DNA of 64,000 bases from a virus. Taxonomy: Duplodnaviria; Heunggongvirae; Uroviricota; Caudoviricetes. The notes under the pieces were generated by a model that saw nothing but the letters and a program-made list of their open reading frames with translations, was not told where the DNA came from and did no database searches. Location of the stretch: positions 1 to 64,000 of IMG/VR virus record IMGVR_UViG_2939142107_000001. One strand, written 5' to 3'. Below are positions 3,634 to 55,931 of the stretch, piece by piece. Within the stretch, counting starts at the first letter, position 1. Each line of letters opens with the position of its first letter. A program made the translations under genes and the position numbers.

Positions 3634-3725
3634 ACTTTCGCCATTCAAATTCCACTATTAACCTACTGTTTTTAAAGTAAATCCATCTAAAATTTCAAGG
3701 TGAAATCGCCACGATTTCACCTTGG
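3634..3725. other. parS: parS partition site (centromere) with box A heptamers, box B TCGCCA hexamers and an AT-rich IHF region
   Basis: CTTTCGCCATTCAAATTCCAC...TAAAATTTCAAGGTGAAATCGCCACGATTTCACCTTGG closely matches the remembered P1 parS. TCGCCA occurs at 3638-3643 and again in the right arm. Confidence 0.85.
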
Positions 3726-3778
3726 ATTTTACCTTCCTCCCCTACTCCCGAAAAAAATAAAAAAATTGCTTGTCACGA

Positions 3779-9197: not shown

Positions 9198-9221
9198 AAA
9201 GCTCCTTCGGGAGCTTTTTTG
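9198..9221 (+). terminator. Rho-independent terminator
   Basis: AAAGCTCC-TTCG-GGAGCTTT followed by a T run. Confidence 0.8.
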
Positions 9222-9261
9222 TGCTTAAATTATGCCGGTATAGATAGATTTTGAGCATGTT

Positions 9262-9558
9262 ATGGAAATTGATTTTTCATACTCTCCTGAGACGATAGAA
9301 AGAAGATTCGAAATAATTGGATGCATAACTATTTCAGATGAGCATTATTGGGTTCTCTATGATGCCAATACATGGTTATGTGCCTTAGCAGAATGTCAGC
9401 CATCGTTATGTGTAGGGGAGGGGGCTTTTCGACATAAGGTGCTGGCTACACTTGAAGTGAACACGTTACGATATTGGTGTGTAGAAATACTTAGTGATAA
9501 CAAAGAATTGCATTTATTATTGCTGAATAAGTGTGCTTCTCTGCGCAGAAAAGCATGA
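9262..9558 (+). CDS. Hypothetical protein (pmgF position)
   Basis: 98-aa ORF, AT-rich. I do not recognise the sequence. Confidence 0.45.
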   Translation: MEIDFSYSPETIERRFEIIGCITISDEHYWVLYDANTWLCALAECQPSLCVGEGAFRHKVLATLEVNTLRYWCVEILSDNKELHLLLLNKCASLRRKA

Positions 9559-9685
9559 GAAAACCCAACCGCTCTCCAGGAATTATCAGAAGAATATATG
9601 CGGAAAGTTATAGCTAGCTATTGAAAAGCTAAAGTAGATCGGTTAGATTTGCCTTACTCATCTACCATGTGTAGAAAGAGCGATC

Positions 9686-9727
9686 GAACCCGATACATAG
9701 CAATATGTGTCGGGTTCAGCTTTTTTA
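9686..9727. terminator. Hairpin terminator, probably bidirectional
   Basis: 13-bp stem GAACCCGATACAT / ATGTGTCGGGTTC followed by AGCTTTTTTAT. It overlaps the stop of the minus-strand ORF ending at 9725. Confidence 0.7.
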
Positions 9728-10189
9728 TGTCCCAAGTGCTCTTTTTCTGCTTTGTTTGAGTGTTCTGATTTTACTGTCATAGGTTACAACATAGGCTGTT
9801 TTGAGAAGCCAATAGTCTCTACGTGCGGATAGCACAACAACGTAGTTTTCACACTCATTCCAGATTACCCACTCTTCAGTTGGTCCTCGTCTTTCAGACC
9901 AACATGATATATCGCAATGGTTATAATTCCTTATCATATGCGCGATCCAGCGAATTCGCTTGCACCGTTCAAGATCGGGTATACGTTCTTCTTCTTTTTT
10001 TCCCTCTGATACTAAATGCCAAAATCCGAACTCTTTCCCATCATATTCCGGTGAATAACGTAATCGAACAGGGAGACCCTTAAACGTTATATTAGAGATT
10101 AAAATGTCTTCTCTGACAACATCATATACATCGTCTATATACTCTTGCCAACTTCCATTGAAGTACAATAAATCTGGCATTTGAAGCAT
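9725..10189 (-). CDS. Hypothetical 154-aa protein, translationally coupled partner of the DUF3800 gene
   Basis: Its ATG overlaps the upstream stop (TGATG at 10187-10191). The ORF track shows a longer 159-aa version starting at 10204. No recognisable motif. Confidence 0.65.
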   Translation of the reverse strand: MLQMPDLLYFNGSWQEYIDDVYDVVREDILISNITFKGLPVRLRYSPEYDGKEFGFWHLVSEGKKEEERIPDLERCKRIRWIAHMIRNYNHCDISCWSERRGPTEEWVIWNECENYVVVLSARRDYWLLKTAYVVTYDSKIRTLKQSRKRALGT

Positions 10190-10893
10190 CAGCGAGCCTC
10201 CCACACGAAAATATTAAATTTACTTTCTGTTGGAAGAGTGCTTTTTAGTAACTCCCTGTTTGTATGTGATTTTATCCTGTTTATGACTTGGATTTTTCCC
10301 GCGTTGCTATTCATTCCTCGATGAACGTAGCCTAACGCACCAATGAAAAGATCCGTTAGCTGCAATTGTTGCACTTCATGAGATCGTATATGTTGAATTC
10401 TGTTTATCGACTCATGATTGTAATCATAGCGATCATTGTGAAGAACCCCTCTTAATTTCTCAATTTTTTCAATACCTAAAGTATCTTTTATATCTAGGTA
10501 GATATTGTATGTGTTGTTACTTTCTATTATGTTTTTTAAGACATAAAAAAACATCTTATAATAGAAAGTATTATGATCTTGATGGAATCGAGCATGGTCC
10601 AGTTGCTCTTTATCAGGAACAACAACACCTCTAAAGCGCAATGCTGGGTTGCTGAAGAAGTAATCTACGACATCTAAGTAAAATTCAACTTTGGACGCAG
10701 ATACTTTAGTCCACTTGATTTCGAAATCAGGTTTTAGATTGTGTTTTAATTTTAATTCCTTGATGTCTCTAGCAATTTTTTTTGTGATAGAGCCAGGACA
10801 CCAAAGTGCACCCAATACCATGACTTTATTATGATCATTTAGTAGGTGACAGGATTCATCGCAGAATACATTAAATGTTCTTCGGTTCAACAT
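10189..10893 (-). CDS. DUF3800-family protein
   Basis: N-terminal FCDES (D12-E13) and C-terminal QLQLTDLFIGAL (Q178..D181) match the two signature motifs of DUF3800. AAGTGGAG RBS upstream. AT-rich. Confidence 0.75.
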   Translation of the reverse strand: MLNRRTFNVFCDESCHLLNDHNKVMVLGALWCPGSITKKIARDIKELKLKHNLKPDFEIKWTKVSASKVEFYLDVVDYFFSNPALRFRGVVVPDKEQLDHARFHQDHNTFYYKMFFYVLKNIIESNNTYNIYLDIKDTLGIEKIEKLRGVLHNDRYDYNHESINRIQHIRSHEVQQLQLTDLFIGALGYVHRGMNSNAGKIQVINRIKSHTNRELLKSTLPTESKFNIFVWEAR

Positions 10894-11061
10894 GTTAACT
10901 CCACTTATTGTTAGGTAGAATTGTCCGTTAGTTGTTTATTAATTGCAATAAAGGGACGTCCAGATTTGACAACTATGTCCTCTTACCAGGACACCTATGA
11001 GTTTGCCTCATGGCAAACTAGAGGTGTTGAAAGTATGCATGGTTATAATTAGAGCAATTCA

Positions 11062-11907
11062 TTACCCTCTGAATCCTGCCGGTATACCCCATTGTTCGTT
11101 ATCTTTATTTTTGGCTAAAACCGCATTAAGAGCTTCGTTTACCGTCATGCAATGCGGCAGATTATCGAAGTTTGATATCCCGCCAATATCAGGAGAACGC
11201 TTGTTCTTCAGGAAAGCATATTTCCGCGAAGCCGCCTCTACTTTCTGCTTGAACTCATGTTTTTGAGCGCGTTTTTTGGATAACCGCAGATTGTCTGCCT
11301 TTGCTTTTGCCTCAGCGATCCAGGAAGTCAAATTTTTGAGCCTGGTCGTTCCGGCACCGCCGGAAACTGATCTTTTTGTTTTTTTAATTTGTGACTTCTT
11401 ATTCTTTATTGCCACGTCATCCTGACAGGGGGAGGGGGTATCATTTTGACATGGGGGTGTGGATAAAAAATTAAATAAAGCCAATGTCTTAGCGAGAACA
11501 GCTTTAACCTTGGTTGCCGCTGAAGAGATCTTTAATTTGCTTTCAATCAGCGCATTTTTGGCTTGTTGTGCGAAGGCCAAAAAGGATGGTGTAAACCGGT
11601 ACAGGTTAGCGCGACGTTCATGGTGATCGCCGATAACAATCTCTACAGACAGAATTCCTTTGTTTACAGCTTCACGGAATGCACGAACGACGGTTGATTG
11701 GCTATAACCAGTTTCTGCCGCGATCAGGCGGTGAGGCTTGTGAATGAAGTATTCACTGGTTGTTGCCGCTAGATTTGCACATTGCGACAGGATATGCCCG
11801 GCGCTACGGGATAGACCGGAGTGTGTTACAAAGCAGGCCAATTCATAGCCAGAAAAAGTAAAATCGCTCATCGTTATACAGCTCAGGAAAGTGACTTTAG
11901 CCAGCAT
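11062..11907 (-). CDS. repL: Lytic replicon initiator RepL (oriL lies inside the gene in P1)
   Basis: 281-aa protein recognised as P1 RepL; downstream of kilA on the same strand. Confidence 0.9.
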   Translation of the reverse strand: MLAKVTFLSCITMSDFTFSGYELACFVTHSGLSRSAGHILSQCANLAATTSEYFIHKPHRLIAAETGYSQSTVVRAFREAVNKGILSVEIVIGDHHERRANLYRFTPSFLAFAQQAKNALIESKLKISSAATKVKAVLAKTLALFNFLSTPPCQNDTPSPCQDDVAIKNKKSQIKKTKRSVSGGAGTTRLKNLTSWIAEAKAKADNLRLSKKRAQKHEFKQKVEAASRKYAFLKNKRSPDIGGISNFDNLPHCMTVNEALNAVLAKNKDNEQWGIPAGFRG

Positions 11908-11936
11908 TACAATGCTGGTGGTTCTTACTACGTCTG

Positions 11937-12737
11937 TTAGCGCGTTGCCGCGACAGGTACCAGCACACCAGCATCAAGCAATCGCTTCATCAGCCACTGC
12001 TGACCTTTGCCGGTTATACGAGTCGTGAAAGAAATCCTGCTTCCATTGCTTGTATCGATCACGGTTTCTTTAAGGGTGAAATACCCACGGGATATGTATT
12101 CTTGTTTGGGGACGTTCCTGCGTTCACCGGTTGCGATCAGAATTCCGTTATCACGCAACCAGGTGAAGAGATAGTTTTGGCCCAGGCCGAGCACTTTGGC
12201 ATAGTTGCCGATTAGAACCCCGCTAGCGGTAGCAACGCGTTCGGCGAATTCGACTTTAGGTGCATCCATAAGCATTTTTTGCTCCAGCCGTTGCTTTTGC
12301 TCTGCCAGGTCGGCAGCCAAACGGAGAGCTTCAGGGAGACTCTGCGGAATAGCTGGTTGTAATCTTCCGGCTCGATAGTCGATAAATGTCTGGTTTACCT
12401 TCAGCCGAAATGCGGGAGAAATCCAGCCTGCGTACTCCACAGCGAGCAATTCATGGGCAAAAGTGCCGCCGCCACGGCCTTCGAACGAAACTATGCAATT
12501 CTGCATAGTTTCTTTTTCAAGCTCTTCGATGAGCTGTTTGGCTGACAGCGTTCTTAGCCATTGAGCTGGCGCTTTATGGGCACCGAGTCCGCTCGCTCTG
12601 TGTAGAGCATTAAGGTTGTAACGGCCAGCGCAGTCGGTCGTAATTTCAACACCACAAATAACAGGCAGAGTGGTTGAAGGATCGACATTTTGATGAAGGT
12701 TTGATATATTCATATCCGCATTGAATGTTTGTTGCAT
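11937..12737 (-). CDS. kilA: KilA (KilA-N domain plus ANT/KilAC C-terminal domain)
   Basis: 266 aa. The C-terminal ~130 aa are paralogous to the Ant C-terminus (PQSLPEALRLAADLAEQK... versus PQTLPEALRLAAELAEQK...). Confidence 0.9.
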   Translation of the reverse strand: MQQTFNADMNISNLHQNVDPSTTLPVICGVEITTDCAGRYNLNALHRASGLGAHKAPAQWLRTLSAKQLIEELEKETMQNCIVSFEGRGGGTFAHELLAVEYAGWISPAFRLKVNQTFIDYRAGRLQPAIPQSLPEALRLAADLAEQKQRLEQKMLMDAPKVEFAERVATASGVLIGNYAKVLGLGQNYLFTWLRDNGILIATGERRNVPKQEYISRGYFTLKETVIDTSNGSRISFTTRITGKGQQWLMKRLLDAGVLVPVAATR

Positions 12738-12806
12738 TTTTTCTCCAAATTTGCATCAACCTTCAATCACCAGCTCGAAATGGTGATTCTTTGCACTTAG
12801 AAAACG

Positions 12807-12823
12807 AAATTTATTAGAGCAAA
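12807..12823 (-). promoter_or_regulatory. C1 operator upstream of kilA-repL
   Basis: AAATTTATTAGAGCAAA matches the reverse complement of the C1 operator consensus ATTGCTCTAATAAATTT at 16/17. Confidence 0.7.
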
Positions 12824-12900: not shown

Positions 12901-13935
12901 TTAACCTATTGCTACTGGTTTTAACAAACCAGCATCAAGTAGCTTGCGAGTTAACCACTGCTGGCCTTTACCCGTTAATTGGGGCGTCAGCCGTATCTGG
13001 TAGCCATTTTCATCATCCAGCACCACTTCTTTCACCGTGAAATACCCGGCGTTGATGTACTGTTGGCGCGGTACGTTTTTGCGCGCTCCAAAAGCCATGA
13101 GAATGCCGTTCTGGCGCAACCATGAGAAAAGGGCGTTTTGCTTAAGTCCAACGACCTTTGCAAAGTTCCCGATCAGGATTCCATTGGCCACTGATACCCG
13201 GTCGGCAAAATCGACTTTAGGGGCTGCGGCCACCAGCTGTTGTTCCAACTGCATTTTCTGTTCTGCTAACTCGGCAGCCAGGCGTAGGGCTTCTGGTAAT
13301 GTCTGGGGGATCGATGGGGTAGGGGAGTTTGCCTGCTGTAACTCTTCCAGTTTGTCGATCAGCGAACGGCGGACCGCTTTTGACTCGCGCGCGGCAACTC
13401 GCAGGGCTTGTTTGTAGGTCATGGTTATAATATCTATTTCTGCGCCGTTTTTTTGACCTACGAAAATTTCGTAGGTTTCTCCTTCAAGCTCATCCTTAAC
13501 TCTGGCAATGAAATCATTGTTGCGAACTGGTTTTTCGCTACATAATTTCCGTGCCTCATTGACCATCTTCAACAATGTTTGGCTGTCGATTGTGTCTCCG
13601 GTGTTTGGGATGACATTCAGGGCTGGTGCTGGCGTAGCTGAAGCAACAGGTGCTGGTTTTTCAACATTTAAATTATTACCGGTCATTCTATGTGCCTCCT
13701 TTCTCATTTCTGCTGCCACTGTTGCGTAACGTAGACGTCCTTGTTCAATCAAATAATCCCTGATCTCGGCTATCAGTAGCCTGTTGATCACAGCCTTATC
13801 TGTTCGGGTATAAAAACGTCTGGTTATCATGAAATAGTTAGCAATTGCGCCGGGGATCTCCCGTGTCGGCATACAGGCAGTATGCAAGGCGATCGCTTCG
13901 ACTATTTCATTACGGGTGACGAGAGGTGTTTTCAT
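12901..13935 (-). CDS. ant1: Antirepressor Ant1 (Ant2 arises from an internal in-frame start in P1)
   Basis: 344-aa ORF overlapping the icd stop; ANT C-terminal domain; immI position. Confidence 0.85.
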   Translation of the reverse strand: MKTPLVTRNEIVEAIALHTACMPTREIPGAIANYFMITRRFYTRTDKAVINRLLIAEIRDYLIEQGRLRYATVAAEMRKEAHRMTGNNLNVEKPAPVASATPAPALNVIPNTGDTIDSQTLLKMVNEARKLCSEKPVRNNDFIARVKDELEGETYEIFVGQKNGAEIDIITMTYKQALRVAARESKAVRRSLIDKLEELQQANSPTPSIPQTLPEALRLAAELAEQKMQLEQQLVAAAPKVDFADRVSVANGILIGNFAKVVGLKQNALFSWLRQNGILMAFGARKNVPRQQYINAGYFTVKEVVLDDENGYQIRLTPQLTGKGQQWLTRKLLDAGLLKPVAIG

Positions 13936-14398: not shown

Positions 14399-14427
14399 AC
14401 TATAAGCCTGAACGATTAAAAGGTCAA
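14399..14427 (-). promoter_or_regulatory. Sigma70 promoter of the c4-icd-ant operon (P51b-like)
   Basis: On the minus strand, TTGACC (14422-14427) is followed by a 17-nt spacer and TATAGT (14399-14404). Confidence 0.65.
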
Positions 14428-14465
14428 TATGATGCGAAAAGATAGCATTCGCGACTTAAAAATAC

Positions 14466-14482
14466 AAATTTATTAGAGCAGA
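14466..14482 (-). promoter_or_regulatory. C1 operator (Op51-like) upstream of immI
   Basis: AAATTTATTAGAGCAGA matches the operator consensus at 15/17. Confidence 0.7.
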
Positions 14483-14772
14483 TTAGTGTCGTGCAATAGA
14501 TATATTATTTGTGATGAAAAATAATGCAGAGGGATATTGTAACTTTAAGATGGATATCAATAGTCGATACATAAATTAAGTTAGCAATAAACTATTAACT
14601 TAAGAAATAATGCAGATGGTGAACTTGTCTCTGACTTTTCAGCTATACACAATAAGTTAGGGATAGCTTATAAAAAGTTGATTAATTGATATAAGTCAAT
14701 GGGAGTATTCTTGTTTACTTTTCGTTCTCGTGGTAACTTCTCGCCGGTTTTTGTTTTTCTGGGATGATTCTT

Positions 14773-15285
14773 ATGTCTAAAAAGTATACTTTATGCGCTC
14801 TTGTTGTATCTGCAATTCTTCTTTCTGGGTGTCAATCTAGCGGTGCTGATTATGCTGCCGATGTTTATGATACCGCTCAATTGAATTCGAAGCAGGAAAC
14901 AAAGACAGTCAATATTATCTCTGTGCTTCCAGCTAAAGTGAAAGTTGATAATAAAGCTAATAAAGAAGCGGCACAGACATTTGGTGCGGTACTGGGAGCT
15001 GTTGCTGGGGGCGTTGCCGGTTATAATGTTAAAGGCACATCGACACTGGGTGCTGTAGCTGGCGGTACTGGTGGTGCGGCTCTTGGTGCAGCGGCTGGTT
15101 CTTTGGTTAGTGATAAAACAATTGTTGAAGGTGTTTCACTGACTTATAAAGAAGGAACTAAGGTGTTCACTTCAACTCAAGTTGGTAAAGCATGCCAGTT
15201 TACAACGGGGCTTGCTGTGCTTATTTCAACTAAAGATAATGAAACTCGAATTCAGCCAAATGCTACTTGTCCAGAAAAGAAATAA
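14773..15285 (+). CDS. Glycine-zipper lipoprotein (SlyB/Pcp-like), at the sim locus position
   Basis: Signal peptide with lipobox LLSG|C (Cys20 counted from the ATG at 14773). Gly-zipper stretch GAVLGAVAGGVAGY...GAVAGGTGGAALGAAAG. An alternative ATG lies at 14764. Confidence 0.8.
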   Translation: MSKKYTLCALVVSAILLSGCQSSGADYAADVYDTAQLNSKQETKTVNIISVLPAKVKVDNKANKEAAQTFGAVLGAVAGGVAGYNVKGTSTLGAVAGGTGGAALGAAAGSLVSDKTIVEGVSLTYKEGTKVFTSTQVGKACQFTTGLAVLISTKDNETRIQPNATCPEKK

Positions 15286-39322: not shown

Positions 39323-39339
39323 AAAATGATTAGAGCAAT
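39323..39339 (-). promoter_or_regulatory. C1 operator upstream of ssb
   Basis: AAAATGATTAGAGCAAT matches the operator consensus at 15/17. Confidence 0.65.
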
Positions 39340-55821: not shown

Positions 55822-55838
55822 ATAATTATTAGAGCAAT
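55822..55838 (-). promoter_or_regulatory. C1 operator (immC, Op99 group)
   Basis: ATAATTATTAGAGCAAT matches the consensus at 15/17. Confidence 0.7.
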
Positions 55839-55914
55839 AAATTTTGAGAGAAAAATCCCACTCCACCAGCCAAAAACTGGATTGTTTTTCATAGTTGTTT
55901 GACAATTGCTCTAA

Positions 55915-55931
55915 TAAATTATAGTTTTGCC
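55915..55931 (+). promoter_or_regulatory. C1 operator overlapping a rightward promoter (P99-type)
   Basis: ATTGCTCTAATAAATTA matches the consensus at 16/17. It is preceded by TTGACA and followed by TATAGT/TAGTTT. Confidence 0.75.

Follow-up and report, generated by a model that had tools for sequence, protein, structure and literature searches.

This study concerns two genes, rlfA and rlfB, and a candidate small RNA gene that faces them in a stretch of viral DNA of 64,000 nucleotides (nt), taken from a member of the Caudoviricetes (IMG/VR record IMGVR_UViG_2939142107_000001, positions 1 to 64,000) and called here the window. Both protein genes lie on the minus strand. The first, rlfA (10189-10893), encodes a DUF3800 protein of 234 amino acids with a predicted fold like that of ribonuclease (RNase) HII. 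The second, rlfB (9725-10189), encodes 154 amino acids counted from its ATG and is translationally coupled to rlfA through a TGATG sequence (10191-10187), in which the stop codon of the first gene and the start codon of the second share the A, a one-base overlap. Shine-Dalgarno-like stretches precede both starts, GGAG at 10902-10899 for rlfA and GGGAGG at 10202-10197 for rlfB. Across the pair the GC (guanine plus cytosine) content is 0.33-0.40, as against 0.47-0.53 in the flanking tail genes and in repL/kilA. A preliminary description of this locus had recognised the two overlapping minus-strand reading frames and their AT-rich composition, and on both counts it was right.

The same description took the slot to hold something other than rlfA and rlfB, namely a newly acquired foreign cassette that had replaced them here and that is closed by its own terminator. 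The low GC content and the variability of the slot would suit such a view, but the identity of the genes refutes it, and we give it practically no credence. Phage P1 is 98.2% identical to window positions 9200-12800 (NC_005856, 3,601 bases) and P7 is 98.9% identical; RlfA shares 233 of its 234 residues with the P1 protein and RlfB shares 152 of its 154, so that they differ by one and two amino acids; and the P1 record places an rlfA of 705 nt and an rlfB of 465 nt between repL and pmgF, as in the window. The pair is orthologous to rlfA/rlfB of P1, which are rapA/rapB of P7, with the same gene lengths and position and no substantive difference. In addition, the T-run of the hairpin that had been read as the terminator of the cassette lies on the other strand.

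The idea of a variable slot in a phage-plasmid stood up better than that of a replacement. Although the genes are rlfA/rlfB orthologues, they do not occur in all P1-like genomes. Among the plasmids of PLSDB, rlfAB is present in 100 and repL in 515, and 14 of the 22 matching phage records (three of these 14 being short P1 sequence fragments) align only from the end of repL onward or further in, and such of these 14 as are P1-like genomes have no rlfAB. When the bplB-repL interval was compared across P1-like phage-plasmids, as the preliminary description had proposed, the slot was found to vary, and three phages, RCS47, SJ46 and Ro157c2YLVW, hold unrelated cargo there. Published comparisons describe rlfA-rlfB-pmgF as the low-GC 'variable region 5' of P1-like phage-plasmids (PMC9603915; see also PMC6906374).

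A candidate small RNA gene facing rlfB

The preliminary description had closed the rlfAB unit with a terminator having a 13-base-pair (bp) stem (9686-9727). A hairpin does exist at 9686-9717, but it is the terminator of an RNA gene of about 70 nt that lies on the opposite strand, convergent with rlfB. The terminator scan assigns this hairpin to the plus strand, where its T-run lies; read on the rlfAB strand, the stem is interrupted by a C.A mismatch, and the sequence behind it, GATCGCTC, contains no U-tract. On the plus strand, a promoter-like site (9621-9649), made of TTGAAA, a 17-nt spacer and TAGATT, ends 7 nt before the conserved CTC that opens helix 1. This helix is a 24-nt hairpin (9657-9680), CTC-A-TCTAC-CATGT-GTAGA-AA-GAG, nearly invariant across phyla. 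Helix 2 (9686-9726) is the intrinsic terminator, with a 14-bp stem including one G.T pair (9686-9717), AGC and T6 (9721-9726), and the T6 overlaps the rlfB stop codon (9725-9727). We place the candidate gene at 9656-9726, both ends being deduced from these signals. The 72-nt stretch of the RNA folds at -29.7 kcal/mol (z -6.3), and a covariance model of the element matches 9651-9745 on the plus strand with 58.1 bits (E 3e-14), its sole match in the whole window. The terminator would also halt read-through from pmgF.

Has this RNA been described before? The annotation of P1 lists none between pmgF and rlfB, and searches of Rfam 15 at permissive thresholds, with the window and with four strong loci, yielded no family that matches it. 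Judged by these two sources and by the searchable literature, the RNA gene is new.

The element came to light when the sequences that follow rlfB were aligned across all loci, including 80 chromosomal loci from about 15 phyla that were retrieved by an RlfA profile. On the strand opposite rlfAB it reads as a promoter and the 24-nt hairpin CUC-A-UCUAC-CAUGU-GUAGA-AG-GAG, which a short linker of variable sequence joins to a hairpin rich in G+C, and then (A/U)GC with a U-run. Covariation statistics were obtained from a 63-sequence alignment with 500 column shuffles, and the 3′ partners slid by 1-3 columns served as control. In the alignment 95.1% of the helix cells are paired, as against 81.1% in the shuffles (0/500 reach the observed value) and 43-52% in the slid controls, and both sides of a pair have changed in 131 cells, compared with 36 expected. 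Helix 1 is paired in 99.6% of its 504 cells, with UA, AU, UG, CG and GC at one position and AU, GU and GC at another, and in one locus (L037) CUC/GAG has become CUG/CAG. There are 104 G.U cells, so that the helices are valid only on the strand opposite rlfAB; indeed, pairing on that strand exceeds pairing on the rlfAB strand in helix 2 (90.5% versus 76.0%) as well as in helix 1 (99.6% versus 95.4%). On the RNA strand 33 of the 63 loci have a T-run (at least 5 in 8) behind helix 2, and on the rlfAB strand 10 of the 63 do. Upstream of the hairpin, 41 of 80 loci have a sigma-70-like site that scores at least 9/12 and keeps a constant spacing, as against 3.9% of shuffles, its -10 element usually ending 8 nt before CUC, and 21 of the 80 loci, mostly from Bacteroidota, carry a TAnnTTTG box in its place. 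The promoters of the RNA thus suit their lineage and keep a fixed distance.

Beside rlfB, one strong match to the covariance model (38-85 bits) is present in all 87 rlfAB loci that could be evaluated. These comprise 79 chromosomal loci, P1, the window, five contigs for three distant RlfB homologues and the Bifidobacterium phage Bbif-1; 17 of the 79 chromosomal loci lie outside the training set of the model, and all 17 matched. Three P1-like loci without rlfAB gave no match. The record of Bbif-1 (GQ141189.1; L211 3190-3777) annotates an 'RlfA phagic protein' and nothing after it. Behind that gene an unannotated RlfB-like open reading frame (ORF) with the YLVVLGERRDYWVLITAY motif ends at 3711, and the RNA lies convergent to it at 3690-3777 (55 bits).

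Although the RNA is convergent with rlfB in most loci, it is co-directional in three (L209, L085 and L123). This orientation rules out cis-antisense control, of the type I toxin-antitoxin kind, as the conserved mechanism, and a trans-acting role suits it better. The linker after the hairpin is not conserved, which rules out a conserved guide segment at that place. Within the hairpin, the GAAGGAG stretch resembles a Shine-Dalgarno sequence; the window and several other loci have A in place of its G, and its GAG is paired with CUC.

The two proteins and their chromosomal neighbourhood

The assignment of RlfA to DUF3800, with its D12-E13 and Q178..D181 motifs, was borne out. RlfA matches Pfam DUF3800 (PF12686) with an E value of 3.5e-14 and 54.2 bits (cut-off 21), residues 8-189 covering profile positions 1-148 of 149, and in a family alignment of 41 sequences both the N-terminal DE (D12, E13) and the C-terminal QxxD (Q178, D181) are invariant. 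The predicted structure of RlfA has an RNase H-like fold that is nearest to the type 2 RNases H (RNase H2/HII), consistent with published modelling of other DUF3800 proteins. In this model D12/E13 lie on strand 1, D134 after the strand 127-133 and D181 on helix 175-191, all of them invariant. Judged by fold and motif order, these residues would stand where the DEDD carboxylates of RNase H2 are expected, and RlfA may accordingly be a nuclease; an attempt to map the catalytic residues by comparing the RlfA family with E. coli RNase HII in hhalign gave no alignment.

For RlfB, which the preliminary description had left without a recognised family, Pfam and NCBIfam contain none either, and NCBIfam gave no matches with any of the five local proteins. 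The structure of RlfB is predicted with confidence (predicted local distance difference test, pLDDT, 90.6). A Foldseek search of the model against the PDB returned nothing significant, and PDB sequence-profile searches with the RlfA and RlfB families returned nothing usable. RlfB may possess an RNase fold of the RelE/colicin-D type, like that of BECR/RelE-type RNase toxins. Several database records, among PLSDB and NCBI annotations, label RlfB homologues 'oxidoreductase', and PHROG 16230 is called 'replication protein'; nothing found here supports either name.

Both proteins match models of PADLOC, RlfA that of PDC-M04A (E 7.8e-96) and RlfB that of PDC-M04B (E 4.1e-52), the two genes being adjacent and overlapping by one base, so that the earlier suggestion of a defence candidate was a fair reading. 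The PDC-M04 class was derived by 'guilt by embedding' in restriction-modification, BREX and DISARM loci and is one of 145 candidates (Payne et al. 2024 preprint). It is defined by two proteins and no RNA, in which it differs from the arrangement described here. Our literature search found no tested function for rlfA/rlfB, PDC-M04, DUF3800, skipping-rope or DUF3800-I/VIII, and Csx32, a DUF3800 protein associated with Cas13, is given no function in its preprint.

The pair is widespread. More than 5,400 clusters make up the RlfA family, whose members keep an identity of about 50% between phyla as far apart as those of the Enterobacteria, Bacteroidota, Nitrospirota, Chloroflexota, Cyanobacteria and Acidobacteriota. 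For RlfB there are 1,765 family representatives at 50% identity, and the best 150 of these are almost all stand-alone proteins of about 150-180 amino acids. Sequence comparison indicates that RlfB evolves much faster than RlfA, RlfA being the most conserved part. The order of the genes is obligate, A and then B: in 79 of the 80 chromosomal loci an RlfB-profile match lies directly downstream of RlfA on the same strand, the exception being truncated by the end of its contig, and even RlfB homologues merely 29-37% identical to the window copy still follow a DUF3800 gene.

What surrounds the pair in chromosomes? In the 79 loci restriction-modification genes that share the strand of the pair adjoin it most often: HsdS (27 loci), HsdR (21 loci), HsdM (15 loci) and the type III-like Res (9 loci) and Mod (8 loci), with Mrr and GmrSD also among them. 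In at least 45 of the 79 loci a gene for HsdS/M/R, type III Mod/Res, Mrr or GmrSD lies no more than three ORFs away, and 13 loci are flanked on both sides and so fully embedded. No replication protein is found among the largest neighbour clusters of these loci. PDC-M04 was itself found through such embedding, here within restriction-modification operons of types I and III. By position only, with no relation of sequence or fold, the arrangement recalls the anticodon nucleases of the PrrC/RloC type, which are accessory nuclease modules inside type I restriction-modification operons. We also observed that rlfAB and the RNA lie within a few kilobases (kb) of a transfer-messenger RNA (tmRNA) gene in one locus (L042 8964-9332) and of a transfer RNA (tRNA) gene in another (L072 2553-2626), both of them typical integration sites of genomic islands.

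Orphan RNAs and known RNA systems

The RNA is not confined to rlfAB loci. A search of IMG/VR viral contigs with the 24-nt core motif gave at least 120 contigs (L085-L204), about three quarters of them without rlfAB, by which an exclusive linkage between RNA and rlfAB is ruled out. In 100 core-bearing contigs the covariance model found a match in every one, most of the matches spanning both the hairpin and the terminator. When the 96 contigs with the core and at least 1,400 nt on the expected rlfB side were considered, 19 hold RlfAB there in convergent orientation; in 2 further contigs the pair lies upstream and co-directional. The other copies stand in diverse phage surroundings, among them anti-repressors, integrases or an exonuclease operon, and tandem pairs of the RNA occur only as such orphan copies in some phages. 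In several contigs (L099, L100, L114, L116, L119, L131 and L144) the RNA stands directly upstream of what was judged by eye to be a tRNA-like sequence.

Among isolated phages, the Bacillus SPbeta/phi3T group has an RNA of the same subfamily, and tblastn found no RlfA homologue or DUF3800 gene in SPbeta-like phages. In Bacillus phage SPBc2 (L210: NC_001884.1 57033-62094, reverse complement), four RNA elements share a non-coding stretch of 1.7 kb between yonN and yonK (1261-2943). Two are tandem copies of the RNA that adjoins rlfB (2437-2495 and 2496-2582), the second with a covarying stem UGUAC/GUACA. Some 40 nt downstream of them lies an Rfam DUF3800-VIII RNA (2621-2686; 47.5 bits, above threshold), and about 1.1 kb away a sub-threshold skipping-rope match (1267-1376; 29.6 bits).

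Bioinformatic work has connected DUF3800 proteins with eleven unrelated RNA motifs and also with retrons and Cas12a2/Cas12a3/Cas13 loci. The DUF3800-associated RNA motifs of Rfam, which are DUF3800-I to -XI, drum and skipping-rope, stand in either orientation to their gene and often include a rho-independent terminator (Weinberg et al. 2017). The RNA beside rlfB is likewise structured and next to a DUF3800 gene in the 87 evaluable loci, but the association involves a single DUF3800 subfamily together with another protein. The Rfam models of these motifs gave no match at E <=10 (window 9600-9760 and L042 6820-6990) or at E <=1 (four whole loci); as a control of the library, its DUF3800-VIII and skipping-rope models do detect RNAs in SPbeta. 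Our RNA belongs to the same world as the motifs of 2017, yet it is none of the Rfam models. Retrons of type VII, made up of a reverse transcriptase, a non-coding RNA and a DUF3800 effector, also join an RNase H2-like DUF3800 protein to a nucleic acid that is not translated, in what is likewise a module of the defence type. Nevertheless, the interval that holds rlfA, rlfB and the RNA contains no reverse transcriptase, the RNA is unlike msr/msd, and rlfAB is often tightly flanked by restriction-modification genes; in addition, the DUF3800 protein of type VII retrons has DEED and lacks the Q of QxxD, whereas RlfA keeps Q178 and D181.

ToxIN has a tandem-repeat RNA as its antitoxin, encoded upstream of the toxin and co-transcribed with it, and a phage pseudo-ToxI acts as a decoy. 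The logic that we propose below would resemble that of ToxIN and other type III toxin-antitoxin systems, with a small structured RNA beside a nuclease-type protein and orphan copies of the RNA in phages. The differences are that the RNA of rlfAB is present in single copy, has its own promoter, lies downstream of rlfB and is usually convergent with it, and that there is no Kid/MazF-like toxin.

A further likeness is with the repeats of Cas12a. The handle of Cas12a forms a pseudoknot that needs an AAUU 5′ flank and a U at -1. The RNA hairpin, UCUAC-CAUGU-GUAGA, is of the UCUAC-N4-5-GUAGA type and matches the handle hairpin of LbCas12a, UCUAC-UAAGU-GUAGA, at 13 of 15 positions, but CUCA and A stand in place of AAUU and U, and the flanks of the RNA, CUCA and A(G/A)GAG, pair with each other. 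The scaffold of LbCas12a, AAUUUCUACUAAGUGUAGAU, is in print (PMC11048238 and about 260 further papers). We regard this resemblance as a lead and not as a classification. Viral Racr and Cracr RNAs and host CreR RNAs share the layout of promoter, single hairpin and rho-independent terminator, and it could be argued that our RNA is a CRISPR-repeat mimic, a solitary repeat unit of their type, aimed at type V-A (Cas12a-family) systems, with RlfA as the stand-alone counterpart of the DUF3800 accessories of types V-A2 and VI-F. The same architecture, the shared positions of the hairpin, the DUF3800 proteins reported beside Cas12a2, Cas12a3 and Cas13 loci and the orphan copies that lie in phage early regions beside anti-repressors all favour that explanation. 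Nonetheless we consider it very unlikely, because the exchanged flanks pair mutually with covariation, the 5-bp stem varies freely (UUAAC, UCAAC, UCCAC, UUGAC), and the sequence after the hairpin is not conserved, which leaves no conserved guide. Among the recurrent neighbour clusters that were scanned no Cas12a-like gene was found, singleton large ORFs, such as one of 1,326 amino acids in L006, lying outside that scan. To our knowledge, neither E. coli nor P1 has a type V-A system.

Control by C1 and possible function of the module

Between the repL stop codon and rlfA lies the C1 repressor operator Orlf, formerly Op55 (ATTGCTCTAATTATAAC, 11042-11058, minus strand), a 17-mer identical to the annotated operator of P1. 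Downstream of it, the equivalent of the 'predicted' P1 promoter PrlfA (10920-10948, minus strand) consists of TTGCAA (10948-10943), a 17-nt spacer and GACAAT (10925-10920), and is weak. The preliminary description had given the pair its own ribosome-binding site and promoter region. The first of these holds, since Shine-Dalgarno-like sequences precede both starts, but a consensus promoter scan reported no sigma-70 site upstream of rlfA, where the P1 record lists only the 'predicted' PrlfA and Orlf. The pair was also said to be an insulated unit, and this is not fully so, as the operator separates rlfA from repL and a preprint on the transcriptome of P1vir groups the rlfA/B transcripts with those of early lytic genes. 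Together, Orlf and the early lytic transcripts argue against a simple constitutive expression of rlfAB from the prophage. At the promoter of the RNA no C1 operator is annotated in P1 or was found by a consensus scan at up to 3 mismatches, a scan that also misses Orlf, which has 5 mismatches.

In the whole window, the consensus of the P1 C1 operators has 10 matches at <=3 mismatches, with 0.29 expected by chance; they include 12807-12823, 14466-14482, 39323-39339, 55822-55838, 55905-55921 and five more. These ten matches are compatible with a complete P1-type immunity circuit in this element. A second sharp dip of the GC content (0.31) is seen at window positions 14400-14800, near the position of c4/sim in P1, and published comparisons describe simABC as another low-GC variable region. 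KilA (11937-12737) and an Ant1-like ORF (12901-13935) have similar C-terminal halves, for example PQSLPEALRLAADLAEQK and PQTLPEALRLAAELAEQK, a likeness that suggests two adjacent copies of the known KilA-C/anti-repressor domain, one in each gene.

The setting behind Orlf agrees with the original naming of the genes in P1. RlfA, as an RNase H-like protein, together with RlfB would process RNA-DNA hybrids or primers for the lytic replication driven by RepL and oriL, and would have no role in defence. The pair lies directly downstream of repL/oriL, its transcripts are grouped with those of early lytic replication genes, the predicted fold of RlfA is like that of RNase H2, and the P1 annotation reads 'possibly associated with lytic replication'. 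However, about four fifths of the repL plasmids lack rlfAB, unrelated cargo takes its place in the three phages named above, and the commonest chromosomal neighbours of the pair, on its own strand, are restriction-modification genes and not replication genes. Moreover, a genome-wide CRISPR interference (CRISPRi) screen found rlfA and rlfB nonessential for P1 plaque formation, with an efficiency of plating (EOP) near 1 upon knock-down (PMC10695390). A part in replication with no defence role therefore seems to us quite improbable.

We lean slightly towards the view that rlfA, rlfB and the RNA form one three-part RNA-protein module, probably serving phage exclusion or abortive infection and possibly addiction of the element. 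The sequence data establish which genes these are, their fixed order, the presence, strand, structure and promoter/terminator signals of the RNA, the restriction-modification surroundings and the predicted fold of RlfA, whereas nuclease activity, RNA binding, toxin-antitoxin logic and anti-phage action belong to the proposed model. How this module might work can be outlined as follows. RlfA would be an RNase H2-like DUF3800 nuclease and RlfB its small, fast-evolving partner. The conserved hairpin of the RNA would be bound by RlfA, or possibly by RlfB, and the RNA would act in trans, either as a bound cofactor or as an antitoxin-like inhibitor of the proteins. We infer from this arrangement an anti-phage function, by exclusion or abortive infection, or one in addiction. 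In P1, rlfAB stands behind Orlf, whereas neither the annotation nor the 3-mismatch scan, which also misses Orlf, shows a C1 operator at the promoter of the RNA; the RNA would accordingly be made in lysogens and RlfA and RlfB mainly after derepression. In chromosomes the module is carried within restriction-modification operons, and in P1 in a variable cargo slot. Finally, the orphan copies of the RNA in phages, such as those of SPbeta, might be decoys against such systems, by analogy with pseudo-ToxI.

Part of this model is shared by another explanation, in which the module is a selfish addiction cassette of the toxin-antitoxin kind. Through post-segregational killing it would stabilise its carrier, be it a phage-plasmid or a restriction-modification island; the RNA would serve as the unstable antitoxin, and any anti-phage activity would be absent or incidental. 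Such a cassette would be compact and spread by horizontal transfer, as the identity of about 50% across phyla suggests for rlfAB; a constitutive-looking RNA promoter adjoins possibly toxic nucleases; the nearby tmRNA and tRNA genes suggest genomic islands; and P1-like plasmids, being of low copy number, benefit from addiction modules. On the other hand, P1 already has phd-doc, a C1 operator before rlfAB is atypical of a constitutive addiction module, and embedding in restriction-modification operons is equally a hallmark of abortive-infection back-ups. The addiction cassette also overlaps with the three-part module and does not exclude it. As a full account of the locus we judge it unlikely.

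Several considerations weigh against the three-part defence module itself. Control by C1 in P1 suits a role in the lytic phase as well as one in defence. The DEDD mapping of RlfA draws on fold and motif order, with no hhalign alignment to E. coli RNase HII behind it, and PDC-M04 is a class of candidates. The RNA is not exclusive to rlfAB, which accompanies it in 19 of the 96 contigs (convergent) and in 2 further contigs (co-directional) and is missing, in its RlfA gene, from the SPbeta-like phages. Both the ends of the RNA and its expression are deduced from sequence signals. The EOP near 1 in the CRISPRi screen, for its part, is uninformative about defence.

What would the module mean for P1 and its relatives? 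The gene pair itself is ordinary, consisting of known P1 accessory genes that are already in a catalogue of defence candidates. Beside it, however, P1, which is among the most studied of phages, appears to carry an unannotated small RNA gene. This gene is conserved almost base for base in Enterobacteria, Bacteroidota, Chloroflexota, Cyanobacteria and a Bifidobacterium phage. It adjoins the pair in every rlfAB locus that could be evaluated. The RNA ties together P1, SPbeta and the unexplained association of DUF3800 proteins with RNAs, and P1 and SPbeta are the two best genetic systems available. It is tempting to extend the analogy with known systems, and to see in rlfA, rlfB and the RNA a widespread ribonucleoprotein immune or toxin-antitoxin system, in which a fixed hairpin like that of a CRISPR RNA (crRNA) would serve an RNase H2-like DUF3800 nuclease as cofactor or antitoxin, with the phage orphans as decoys; this we put forward tentatively, as a possibility that is more doubtful than not. 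If the RNA were indeed an antitoxin or cofactor and its phage copies decoys, they would represent a new RNA-based layer in the conflict between phages and their hosts, and would provide the first function for the long-unexplained association of DUF3800 genes with many structured RNAs.

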